Source of the DNA: an uncultured Mycoplasmatota bacterium
GTDB lineage: Bacteria; Bacillota_I; Bacilli_A; RF39; UBA660
Length of the DNA stretch: 64,000 bases
Reading direction: 5' to 3'
Assembly (NCBI GenBank): GCA_948466395.1
Contig: CAOKAG010000001.1
Location: 14,584 to 78,583 of the forward strand
Notes under the pieces: model-generated
Seen by the model: only the letters and a program-made list of their open reading frames with translations
Told to the model about the DNA's origin: nothing
Databases searched by the model: none
Program-made: the position numbers and the translations under genes
Shown: piece by piece, positions 6,209 to 10,596 of the stretch
Position numbering within the stretch: the stretch's first letter is position 1
Layout: each line of letters begins with the position of its first letter

Positions 6209-6901
6209 TTATTTTAATTTTTTATAGAAATCCTCTCGCCAATTGCTTCTTTTTCCATTTTTTCTTATGTAATTCAATGAACCATAGCAAGTCTTTGGAT
6301 CACTTAAAAATTCTATTTTTTCTATTTCATCTAATTCAATACGCCAGACACATCCTTGTAAAATATCGCTTTCTTCTGTGATACACAAATCAAAACTTTT
6401 TTTAATTTCATTACAAATATTTAAATAATCTTTATCCATCCGATGGGATTCATATTTATCTGGTCTAGATAGAGCTTTTAATTCTTCTTTTGTAATGTTT
6501 AGTTTTTGTAATTTTTTATCAAATCTTTCTTTATCTAAAAGATTTTTAGGAATGTACATATTATTTAATAAAAAAGAATATCTTCTAAAATCAGTAATGA
6601 AAATTTCTTTTTTAGGTTTATTAAATGTTATTTTCACATCAAAACCTTTCACAGGTGTACCTTTATGTTTAGGAGGACAAATTCCGTTGTAACACTTTAC
6701 CCAACACCAAATGGGATAGTGAATTTGATGGGGATTATTAAGAACTTTATTCATTTTTTCTATAACCCAAGAATAGGTTGCTTCACTCTTTTTCAAGTCT
6801 ATAAAGTTTGAATTCGCTTCTAGATAGCCTTTGTTTAATAAATCTTTTAAAGCGTTTAAAGATTGAAATGTTATGAGTTTCATTTGCTTGTTTCCTTTCA
6901 C
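6209..6901 (-). CDS. DUF3841-like hypothetical protein
   Basis: Conserved aromatic motif HYPIWCW near residue 60 recalls the DUF3841 family. This is from memory, not a search. Confidence 0.45.
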   Translation of the reverse strand: MKGNKQMKLITFQSLNALKDLLNKGYLEANSNFIDLKKSEATYSWVIEKMNKVLNNPHQIHYPIWCWVKCYNGICPPKHKGTPVKGFDVKITFNKPKKEIFITDFRRYSFLLNNMYIPKNLLDKERFDKKLQKLNITKEELKALSRPDKYESHRMDKDYLNICNEIKKSFDLCITEESDILQGCVWRIELDEIEKIEFLSDPKTCYGSLNYIRKNGKRSNWREDFYKKLK

Positions 6902-7037: not shown

Positions 7038-7982
7038 TTAATAAGAAGTGGTTCGAGTTAAATGATAAGGTTTAGTCTTTTTGGTTTTATTTTGACTCCT
7101 ATTCCAGATAAAGTTATTAATATCCATTCTGTCTATTTTACCTCGCATTTTTTCATGAATATAATTTATGACGATAAGCATACTCGCTCTAATTTCCACT
7201 TCGTCTTCATTATTTTCGAGTATTTCAATTTTATTGATGATTTTATTTTCTAGTTCTTTATTGTATTCTAAAATACCTAAATCATGCATAACTTGAGGAA
7301 TCTTATAATCCGCACACCCCAAAAGACTTGAATAATCGACGTTTTTTTGTTCTTTTCTTTCTATGACATATAAAATATCAGAGGTTAAAAGTTGTGCTAA
7401 TTTGTAAAAATAAATCGTTTTATTTTTATAAGTTCTTATATCATCAAAACAAGGAAAGTTCTCTATAATTGTATTAAATATTTCTATATCGGAATTCATT
7501 TCTTTTATCCATTCATAAAAATTGCTATTCATTTTTTCATTTACTCTTTTAACTATTTCAATGACTCTTTTGTATCTTTCTTCTAAAAGAGGAATTTCAA
7601 CATTTCCTTTTAAAATTTCTTTAAATTTTTCAAGGGTCATTTTTTCTAAACGCTTATAAACTTCTACACTATCACGCTTTTCAAATAAATTAAAAATACA
7701 ATGTAAAAGTGCCATTCCTCCATCTAGTTGTTTACTATCTGTTGTAATGGTCCATTTAGGCTCTCCCCAAAAAGAAAAATCTATAGCGTCATAGATGAGA
7801 AGAAAATTTACAATGTCTTTCGTATTCATTTCGTAAATAGGATAAGGAACTTTTGTGAGATAATGGCTCTTTTCAAATTTAGCAAATTCTTCGATTAATT
7901 CATTGGCTTTTTCATAATTAATTTTTACATATTTGGCCTTATCTACTACAAACTGGTTGGTTTCTAATACTTTACTTAACAT
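7038..7982 (-). CDS. Qng1/DUF2419-like queuosine-salvage protein (queuosine 5'-phosphate N-glycosylase/hydrolase family)
   Basis: IYDAIDFSFWG and GCADYKIPQVMHDLGIL motifs are characteristic of the DUF2419/Qng1 family (IDF..FW and ADY.IPQ). Confidence 0.55.
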   Translation of the reverse strand: MLSKVLETNQFVVDKAKYVKINYEKANELIEEFAKFEKSHYLTKVPYPIYEMNTKDIVNFLLIYDAIDFSFWGEPKWTITTDSKQLDGGMALLHCIFNLFEKRDSVEVYKRLEKMTLEKFKEILKGNVEIPLLEERYKRVIEIVKRVNEKMNSNFYEWIKEMNSDIEIFNTIIENFPCFDDIRTYKNKTIYFYKLAQLLTSDILYVIERKEQKNVDYSSLLGCADYKIPQVMHDLGILEYNKELENKIINKIEILENNEDEVEIRASMLIVINYIHEKMRGKIDRMDINNFIWNRSQNKTKKTKPYHLTRTTSY

Positions 7983-8003: not shown

Positions 8004-8465
8004 TTACTTTTTTATTAAGCCCCCACTACATTTTAAGACATAGATTTTTTTATCGTTTTTATAAATGGTCTCTGTCCCATTAAAATAAAACAAATCTCCT
8101 TCTACTTCAAACGTGTATTTGTATTCTCCGTTTATCCATTCTCTTGGTCCTCTAACAGGAATGGTGTCATCGCTTCCTACTTGCATTAATGCGGGTCTTA
8201 AAGCTTTATCCATGGCTTCTTCACTTAAGGTTTCATCCAAAGTTACCCCATAATAATTCATTCCCCAATAGATTTCTTTGTCTTTATAGATGACTTCTTC
8301 TCCAATAAAATTGGTTCCTCCAAAATAGGTGTCATGATAAATCATATTCTCTTTTTGGTAGTCGTAATCATTTGAATTTAATCGGGTACTTGCTGTTTTT
8401 CTTGTCTTTCCATTTGCATAAGTTTGTTTTTTGGCCTCTATTAAAAATTCTTCAATTTTTTTCAT
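8004..8465 (-). CDS. DUF5680-like hypothetical protein
   Basis: YHDTYFGGTNFIGEE...WGMNYYG...GEYKYTF pattern recalled from the DUF5680 family; low certainty. Confidence 0.4.
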   Translation of the reverse strand: MKKIEEFLIEAKKQTYANGKTRKTASTRLNSNDYDYQKENMIYHDTYFGGTNFIGEEVIYKDKEIYWGMNYYGVTLDETLSEEAMDKALRPALMQVGSDDTIPVRGPREWINGEYKYTFEVEGDLFYFNGTETIYKNDKKIYVLKCSGGLIKK

Positions 8466-8469
8466 TTTT

Positions 8470-9153
8470 CTAATTTATATACTCCCATATTTTATTGTAC
8501 TGTTTTAATTGTTCGTTTTTTTTAATTTGAGCAACGGGGTGATATAAAGGGATTATAACATAATTTTCAATTTTAATTATAGATGTTTCAATGGTTTCTT
8601 TTAAATTTTTTTTTATTTTAAAATTATATATTTTTGACAAGGCGACTAATGGATAATAACCTAATGGAACTAAAACAATCGGTTTTACAATGTCTATTTG
8701 TTTTTTTAAATAGTCACAACAGTTTAGGGTAGATTGTTTTAAATTTATATTGTTACCACGATAACTTACCCCTTGCCTTGCACACATAATAGCATTCGTT
8801 ATAAAAGCTTCTTGTAACGTATGTTTCCCATTTGAAGATTGCTCTATATTCTTTTCTAATAATTTTTTGGTATGGCTTTTTTCAGATTCGATTAATTCTT
8901 TCCAATTGCTTTTATCAGGAAGAAGTTTTTTGTTTAATTCGTTCATATCTATGAAAGGTCCCCAATCTTGACCAATAATCATGACTTTACTGTTTAAATG
9001 TTGAAACCAATCGGTCCAAATAGAAGGAATGTTTTTGGCAAAAGTTAAATCTTTATATAGATTGATTAAATTTTTTTCTTTACAATTGTATTGCATACAT
9101 TTTTGACACGTTTTTAATTGCTTTAGCAAGACTTCAAATTGTTCTTTTTTCAT
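8470..9153 (-). CDS. Uracil-DNA glycosylase superfamily protein, a family-4-like variant
   Basis: N-terminal CQKCMQYNC cluster and IIGQDWGP where UDG4 has VGEAPG; C-terminal YHP where UDGs have HPSP. Confidence 0.5.
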   Translation of the reverse strand: MKKEQFEVLLKQLKTCQKCMQYNCKEKNLINLYKDLTFAKNIPSIWTDWFQHLNSKVMIIGQDWGPFIDMNELNKKLLPDKSNWKELIESEKSHTKKLLEKNIEQSSNGKHTLQEAFITNAIMCARQGVSYRGNNINLKQSTLNCCDYLKKQIDIVKPIVLVPLGYYPLVALSKIYNFKIKKNLKETIETSIIKIENYVIIPLYHPVAQIKKNEQLKQYNKIWEYIN

Positions 9154-9201
9154 TTTGACTTTTACTTTCTATAATCCACTGAATATCTTCGATGGCTTTA
9201 T

Positions 9202-9804
9202 TTAAATTAAACCTTCCATTTCCAACAGGATAAAATACTGAATAAAAGGTATACTTTTTTTATTTATTTCTTTTATAAATTCTTTTCTTCTAACTTTTGA
9301 GACAGCGATTTTTTCTTTTAAAATTAAAGAACTAACTTGATTACCAAATAATAAAATAATTTTAGGAGCAACTATCTCAATTTCTCTGAATAATAATTTC
9401 AAGTATTTTTTATAAATACTATCGGGAAGGGGTCGAGCGTCTATTTGGGTACATTTTCCTAAATTAGTTATAAAAACTTTATGTTTTTCTACATCCTCAT
9501 AAACCCTTTTTGCAAATTTAACGTCCCATTCCTGTCCTTTTCTAATTTTAATTTCTTTATAAATGTCTTCACTTAATAAATTCAATGAAAAAAATAAATC
9601 CCAACTCTTTTTTGTGCCTAACCAAGGGGCTCTAATCCCCTCCCATGTTTTCGATGAAGCGGGATTTTTTCCTGTAGGATTCATAAAAACAAAGCAAAAA
9701 TCTGGATGTTTTAAACATCCTCCATTATAAATAGCGCTTAATTCTTTTGCGCCATATTTTTCTTGTAATTTATCGTATTCTTTATTTAACTCTTCTAGGT
9801 TCAT
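9202..9804 (-). CDS. UDG-superfamily-like protein, SMUG/MUG-type motif
   Basis: FVFMNPTGKNP resembles the GINPG/GMNPG motif-1 of MUG/SMUG. The second motif is unclear, so this is weakly supported. Confidence 0.35.
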   Translation of the reverse strand: MNLEELNKEYDKLQEKYGAKELSAIYNGGCLKHPDFCFVFMNPTGKNPASSKTWEGIRAPWLGTKKSWDLFFSLNLLSEDIYKEIKIRKGQEWDVKFAKRVYEDVEKHKVFITNLGKCTQIDARPLPDSIYKKYLKLLFREIEIVAPKIILLFGNQVSSLILKEKIAVSKVRRKEFIKEINKKSIPFIQYFILLEMEGLI

Positions 9805-9814
9805 CTATTACTCC

Positions 9815-10102
9815 TTATTTTTGTTTTTCTGGGTAATCCTTATCCTTCCAATACCACCATTTTAATTTTTCTTCGTCCCAAGAAGTATGTTCAGCATAAT
9901 AGATGGCCATTCTAAAAAGATACAATTCGCACTTGTCTTCTTTAAATCCTTTGCATTCACAATCTTTTAAATAAAGGTCTTCTGGATTTTGACCGACTAA
10001 ATCTTCTACATAATTTATACCAATATTTTTTAAAGCAAGCTTCGTTCTTTTTCCAACGTTTGGAATGGTTTTTAAATCGGTTTTCATTCGGATTGTCCCC
10101 AT
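9815..10102 (-). CDS. Helix-hairpin-helix DNA-binding protein (Cdd1 / 'pathogenicity locus' family)
   Basis: [33 protein letters not shown] HhH motif. Confidence 0.6.
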
Positions 10103-10596
10103 TCAATCTCAATTTTTTTACTCTTTATTGAATTTATTTTTTTATAGGTAATCCCACAAGTGTCAAAGAGTTTTCGAGAAGCAATATTGTTATCACTTTC
10201 TCTATATTTATCACTTAAATAAATGACTTCTTTAATTCCTGATTGAATAATGGCTTTGGCACATTCATTACAAGGAAATAAATCTACATAAATTTTAGAA
10301 CCTTCTAAATCCTTACTACTTCCTCGAAAGTTTAATATTGCGTTCAATTCAGCGTGACAAACATAAAAATATTTTGTTTCTAAAGGGGTCCCTTCTCTTT
10401 CCCAAGGAAAGGTATCATCACTGAATCCATTTGGTGTTCCATTATACCCGATGGACAAAATGCGATTGTCTTTTCCAACTATGCAAGCTCCTACTTGAGT
10501 TTTGGGGTCTTTACTACGCATGGCTGATAGTTTTGCTATGCCCATAAAATATTCGTCCCAAGATAAATAATTTTCTCTTTTTTTACTTTTTATCAT
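10084..10596 (-). CDS. comEB: dCMP (deoxycytidylate) deaminase, ComEB type
   Basis: Zinc-binding HAELNAI and PCNECAK motifs. Confidence 0.85.

Follow-up and report, generated by a model that had tools for sequence, protein, structure and literature searches.

The window analyzed here, by which we mean the whole 64-kb stretch of DNA, encodes two uncharacterized and distant relatives of the uracil-DNA glycosylases (UDGs), which sequence comparison places in two different subfamilies. ORF1 (8470..9153, minus strand; 227 aa) is an intact UDG-superfamily gene and represents the 'GQDWG' subfamily. ORF2, which in its corrected reading spans 9134..9804 (minus strand; 223 aa), represents the 'FMNPTG/YPVGNGRFN' subfamily and has a 1-nt deletion in this assembly. 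On balance, we favor the view that the locus specifies two monofunctional DNA base-excision glycosylases of two experimentally uncharacterized UDG subfamilies, both with a family-4-like scaffold. Within this reading, ORF1 is most likely an Fe-S uracil glycosylase with UNG-like chemistry and is probably the main uracil-DNA glycosylase of its lineage.

Two UDG-fold proteins in a co-directional gene string

[quoted passage not shown] Both frames are indeed present on the minus strand, and the attribution agrees with their motifs and with their scores against the Pfam UDG profile PF03167 (gathering threshold 24.3 bits): ORF1 scores 42.7 bits (E 7.7e-11) and even the truncated ORF2 scores 31.0 bits (E 3.1e-7), both above the threshold. 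The same reading had named the fold as the point to check, and the predicted models adopt the α/β/α UDG fold rather than a non-UDG one. These AF2 models are of medium confidence near the motif loops, with residues 121-123 and 196-198 of ORF2 at a pLDDT below 50; the secondary structure elements given below were obtained by running DSSP on them. Sequence and literature searches recovered no solved structure or published description of a member of either family, and a literature search for GQDWG returned no paper.

The two genes are embedded in a co-directional string with the order: rplS, lepB, a dCMP-deaminase-like gene, a helix-hairpin-helix (HhH) protein gene, ORF2, ORF1, and genes for a DUF5680 protein, a Qng1-like protein and a DUF3841 protein. 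The dCMP/cytidine deaminase-family gene (ComEB-like; 10084..10596, minus strand; Pfam dCMP_cyt_deam_1, E 3.2e-27; NCBIfam ComEB match under its cut-off) overlaps both lepB and the gene for the HhH protein, a 95-aa member of the Pfam family Cdd1 (9815..10102, minus strand; E 1.7e-21). The latter lies upstream of ORF2 with a gap of 10 nt to its start, and the same Cdd1-ORF2 order is seen in L007 and L094. Downstream, the DUF5680 gene (8004..8465, minus strand; Pfam DUF5680, E 1.7e-28) begins 4 nt past the ORF1 stop and shows a 10-nt deletion 5' of its start relative to L093-L095. Beyond it are a homologue of the queuosine salvage N-glycosidase Qng1/DUF2419 (7038..7982, minus strand; Pfam Q_salvage, E 8.1e-47), which matches the solved Qng1 structure 7u07 with an E-value of 1.5e-39, and, as the last gene of the string, the DUF3841 gene (6209..6901, minus strand; Pfam DUF3841, E 1.1e-24), for whose product a sequence search found no solved relative. 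No tRNA or Rfam elements were found across the whole 64-kb window, and the GC content of the region shows no deviation.

The tight, co-directional packing of ORF2, ORF1 and the DUF5680, Qng1-like and DUF3841 genes would be in keeping with a base-salvage or queuosine-related operon, in which ORF1 and ORF2 act on nucleotides or nucleosides; some ORF1 homologues also adjoin QueH (L003-L006) or a PTPS/QueD-like gene (L010, L014). We regard such a role as highly improbable. Across 80 ORF1 loci, Q_salvage occurs within 10 kb in only four, PTPS in one and QueH in none, and on this systematic count a queuosine link was dropped as the main explanation. Further, genes for DNA repair and house-cleaning are commoner as neighbors, and the characterized UDG-fold enzymes in the cited papers (PMC5449639; PMC5387724; the Brig1 paper) all act on DNA.

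A frameshift truncates ORF2

The sequence-only reading took the in-frame ORF at 9202..9804 (minus strand; 200 aa, stopping at 9202) to be a gene. This is a truncated reading, in which a frameshift was missed and motif B lies out of frame. ORF2 is truncated because of an A8-to-A7 deletion in a homopolymer at 9255..9261 (minus strand): the relatives have A8, as pairwise alignments with three approximately 98% identical strains (L093, L094 and L095) show. The last 17 residues of the truncated product, SIPFIQYFILLEMEGLI, which follow K183, are frameshift read-through, while the -1 frame runs on as KKYTFYSVFYPVGNGRFNLNKAIEDIQWIIESKSQNEKRTI* to a stop at 9134..9136. The latter stretch is an exact match to the 223-aa protein P0001, which is 98% identical to ORF2, and the product of a further contig, L103, shows 100% identity to P0001, which brings to four the assemblies of approximately 98% or more identical strains that have A8. 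There is an overlap of 20 nt between the intact ORF2 and ORF1. No other record contains the exact 200-aa truncated product, and hence the frameshift is unique to this assembly among those indexed. ORF2 is either inactivated or mis-sequenced here, and the deletion may be a plain homopolymer sequencing error. Because motif B and the C-terminal helix are lost with it, ORF1 is the only one of the two expected to function here. We recommend annotating the interval 9202..9804 as a frameshifted gene or as a sequencing error, not as a 200-aa protein.

The GQDWG family: a predicted Fe-S glycosylase

Motif A of ORF1 (G61-Q62-D63-W64-G65-P66; 8956..8973, minus strand) immediately follows strand β1 (residues 57-61). 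It is part of the segment IIGQDWGP (residues 59-66), which had been singled out earlier for having Gln at the position of the family-4 Glu, and GQDWG does align column-for-column with GEAPG. The accompanying comparison of this Gln to MUG and UDGb was mistaken: MUG has GINPG and UDGb has GLAPA (PMC5449639). GQDWG shows no variation among 35 close homologues, and the Q-D doublet is retained in 38 of 40 diverse members of the family, down to 23% identity. Motif B (H205-P206-V207-A208-Q209; 8527..8541, minus strand) lines up with YHPAA of the S. tokodaii family-4 UDG (4zbx), with H205 present in all 40 diverse members. The T119-N120 pair after strand β2 is likewise retained in family members as distant as 23% identity, and N120 aligns with N80 of T. 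thermophilus (Tth) UDGa. The helical insert between motif A and β2 is about 20 residues longer than usual, and longer than that of family 4.

Four cysteines distributed over 8719..9108 (minus strand), namely C16 (9106-9108), C19 (9097-9099), C124 (8782-8784) and C145 (8719-8721), are predicted to correspond to the 4Fe-4S ligands of the family 4/5 UDGs. All four are invariant in the close-homologue alignment; the CxxC formed by C16 and C19 aligns with the CxxC of the S. tokodaii enzyme, and in T. thermophilus UDGa the counterparts of C124 and C145 are the two C-terminal cysteines of the cluster. The set behaves in a near all-or-none fashion: 32 of 40 family members have the four together and none has exactly three. 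The N-terminal cysteine cluster noted in the sequence-only reading is therefore present, but it constitutes half of this predicted ligand set rather than a separate feature.

By this token, a 4Fe-4S cluster would be held by these cysteines as in the family 4/5 enzymes, and uracil or a close uracil analogue would be flipped out into the pocket. There N120 would read the N3/O4 face of the base and H205 of motif B would stabilize the leaving base via O2, comparable to the roles of N80 (uracil N3/O4 reading) and the motif-B His (leaving-group stabilization) in Tth UDGa (PMC5387724). In place of the family-4 doublet, ORF1 would deploy the UNG-type Gln62-Asp63, in which Asp63 would position or activate the water for attack. 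Such a doublet is functional when built into Tth UDGa: the QD double mutant outperforms E41Q alone by more than 100-fold and is only 5-fold below wild type (PMC5387724). ORF1 has Trp for the motif-A Pro along with the longer insert, and hence its pocket may not fit plain uracil.

The FMNPTG/YPVGNGRFN family: an Asn-type, His-less relative

Motif A of ORF2 (F40-M41-N42-P43-T44-G45; 9670..9687, minus strand) also comes right after strand β1 (residues 36-40). The encompassing segment FVFMNPTGKNP (residues 38-48) had been likened to the MUG/SMUG motifs, a resemblance that is borne out: FMNPTG has the M-N-P of the SMUG motif GMNPG and the N-P of the MUG motif GINPG (PMC5449639). Among 33 homologues there is no variation at F40, M41, P43 or T44, and at least 90% have N42 and G45. 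In the models N42 lies two residues past β1, at the same position as D63 of ORF1. Motif B (YPVGNGRFN; 9206..9232, minus strand) goes untranslated in the window because its frame is shifted by -1 from that of the preceding coding sequence. It aligns with HPVAQ of ORF1 (hhalign) and HPAA of 4zbx; in the profile alignment Y192-P193 stands opposite H205-P206 of ORF1, placing a Tyr at the position of the motif-B His. Y192, P193 and G195-N200 do not vary within the family, which possesses neither the CxxC nor the fourth Cys. The mean column identity of the family is 74%, with FMNPT, TNLGKCTQ, LFGNQVSS and YPVGNGRFN as invariant blocks, and a total of 4507 matches was recovered.

In its intact form, ORF2 would thus be an enzyme with no Fe-S ligands, an Asn-type motif A (N42) like those through which MUG, SMUG and Brig1-type enzymes position water, and Tyr192 where the leaving-group His normally sits; with this combination a slower, broader enzyme would be expected. 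Hypoxanthine, xanthine or mismatched uracil would be candidates for its substrate, which fits the recurrent proximity of the family to Ham1 ITPase and AP endonuclease genes described below.

Since the usual first Gly of motif A (here Phe) and the His of motif B (here Tyr) are missing, ORF2 could alternatively be very weak or a purely binding protein. Taken further, the family would be catalytically dead or nearly so, acting as a damage-binding or accessory UDG-fold protein, and the frameshift would be tolerated because the gene is dispensable. The H155S mutation of Tth UDGa, which lowers the rate by more than three orders of magnitude (PMC5387724), and the disruption of ORF2 in this strain amidst intact neighboring genes are compatible with this. 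We nevertheless hold it to be rather unlikely: the very strong conservation of the family and its 4507 matches argue for a selected activity, MUG/TDG too is without the motif-B His (MPSSSAR) and yet is an active glycosylase (PMC5449639), and the frameshift is possibly mere homopolymer error.

Relationship to known UDG families

We compared the two proteins with the UDG families using the published motif definitions (PMC5449639). Motifs A and B are, respectively: GQDPY and HPSPLS in family 1 (UNG); GINPG and MPSSSAR in family 2 (MUG/TDG); GMNPG and HPSPRN in family 3 (SMUG1); GE(A/G)PG and HPAAVL in family 4; GLAPA and HPSPLN, along with an Fe-S cluster, in family 5 (UDGb) (PMC5449639). The GE(A/G)PG motif of the family 4 UDGa enzymes (T. 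maritima 1l9g, T. thermophilus 1ui0, S. tokodaii 4zbx) is absent from both ORF1 and ORF2. ORF1 (HPVAQI) has the His-Pro of their motif B and four cysteines that align with their Fe-S ligands and are predicted to bind a cluster, whereas ORF2 (YPVGNG) lacks the former and, of the latter, the CxxC and the fourth Cys. Both fall far under the cut-off (125.3 bits) of the NCBIfam family-4 model TIGR00758, with 29.8 bits for ORF1 and 32.4 bits for ORF2.

With family 1, ORF1 shares a motif A that opens with G-Q-D, the Gln-Asp doublet whose Asp activates the water, as well as the H-P start of motif B and an Asn that reads uracil; neither protein has the full GQDPY and HPSPLS motifs. BdiUng (Blr0248, PDB 5gn2; GQDPA), a UDG designated a 'new class', resembles ORF1 in naturally coupling a family-4-like fold to a UNG-type QD doublet (PMC5449639); its combination of GQDPA, no Fe-S cysteines and an extended protrusion replacing motif B is not found here. 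Trp64 of ORF1 differs from the motif-A Pro of every classical UDG family. ORF2 differs from MUG/TDG and SMUG1 in having Phe for the first motif-A Gly, Thr-Gly for the last Gly, and YPVGNGRFN rather than MPSSSAR or HPSPRN as motif B; its closest fold and sequence matches are in family 4 and not in families 2 or 3, whose motif sets it does not have. The family 5 combination of GLAPA, HPSPLN and an Fe-S cluster is likewise not present.

The anti-phage proteins Brig1 and Brig2 are, like both families reported here, divergent members of the UDG superfamily with a family-4 UDG as the nearest structure (that of S. tokodaii in the case of Brig1), and the Brig1 motif A, GLNPG, is of the Asn type. Other divergent UDG-like defense proteins are also known. 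It is conceivable, then, that one or both of our proteins excise a modified pyrimidine, e.g. a 5-substituted uracil, from phage DNA instead of repairing the host genome, with Trp64 or Tyr192 enlarging the pocket. A RhuM gene directly follows the ORF1-family gene in 12 of 80 loci, KilA-N genes lie near it in eight of 80, and in the window, too, a RhuM remnant and a ParA/ParB pair are found at a distance of a few kb on the downstream side. Several observations make this quite improbable. A profile comparison with Brig1 (sequence from the supplement of its paper) gave an hhalign probability of 0.1% for both families, and membership in the Brig1 family was rejected; PADLOC returned no match; and the T-N for reading uracil-type bases is preserved in both proteins, in contrast to Brig1, which reads the base with a Glu. 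Both families are essentially absent from phage records: a search of phage genomes yielded only one weak match in phage SPR and two weaker ones under the family-A DNA polymerase genes of Lysinibacillus phages. Whereas Brig1 is characterized by a defense-island context, the contexts of our families are mostly core-genome or house-cleaning ones. The GC content does not set the region apart, and ORF1-family genes often lie within the core rplS-lepB-rbgA-rnhB region and are conserved in 177 species at 50-70% identity, a pattern that resembles the vertical inheritance of housekeeping genes.

Genomic contexts of the two families

The two proteins had earlier been termed paralogues, which overstates their affinity: the family profiles align over 89 C-terminal columns only, at 22% identity (hhalign probability 52%, E 1.4e-4), and on these comparisons we classify them as separate subfamilies rather than close paralogues. 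The adjacency of two different subfamilies is compatible with different substrate ranges. The pair occurs within 10 kb in seven of 80 species-level ORF1 loci and in none of 79 ORF2-anchored metagenome loci. A conserved tandem module was rejected on these counts, with both gene orders and gaps of 36-3348 nt seen in the pairs. The carrier MAGs are variously labelled Bacilli, Tenericutes or Mycoplasmatota, and Erysipelotrichales.

Beyond the frequent location in the core region mentioned above, ORF1-family genes have as neighbors NUDIX genes (10 of 80 loci), RNase HII, an NTPase_I-T xanthosine/inosine triphosphatase and two families of putative HhH glycosylases. In nine of 79 metagenome loci (about 11%), from about seven lineages and in varied arrangements, the ORF2-family gene has a Ham1-like gene within 3 kb; in L099/L100 the ORF2-family gene is flanked by two Ham1 genes and adjoins AP_endonuc_2. 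This recurrence beside Ham1 ITPase genes suggests that the ORF2 family excises deaminated bases.

A more far-reaching version of the glycosylase reading is distinctly unlikely as a whole. Under it, the ORF1 family would be a natural hybrid UDG that unites the family-4 Fe-S scaffold, a His motif B and the UNG Gln-Asp doublet, a combination that had until now arisen only through engineered mutations in Tth UDGa, with the invariant Trp, at the site of the otherwise universal motif-A Pro, retuning the pocket to a target other than uracil, for instance a 5-substituted uracil of phage DNA; the ORF2 family would be a second new class for deaminated purines, and the occasional tandem a module of two enzymes for deaminated or modified pyrimidines and purines.

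Implications

If the inferences drawn for the favored reading, two base-excision glycosylases of separate subfamilies, hold, uncultured low-GC gut Bacilli would possess two UDG classes beyond the six textbook families. The ORF1 class would provide a natural test of the co-evolution of the motif-A doublet (EG versus QD) with the motif-B His, an idea so far examined only by engineering of Tth UDGa. The ORF2 class would contribute an enzyme of the Asn type that lacks the His and has a family-4-like scaffold, and its ITPase linkage would offer a testable prediction of its substrate: hypoxanthine or xanthine.

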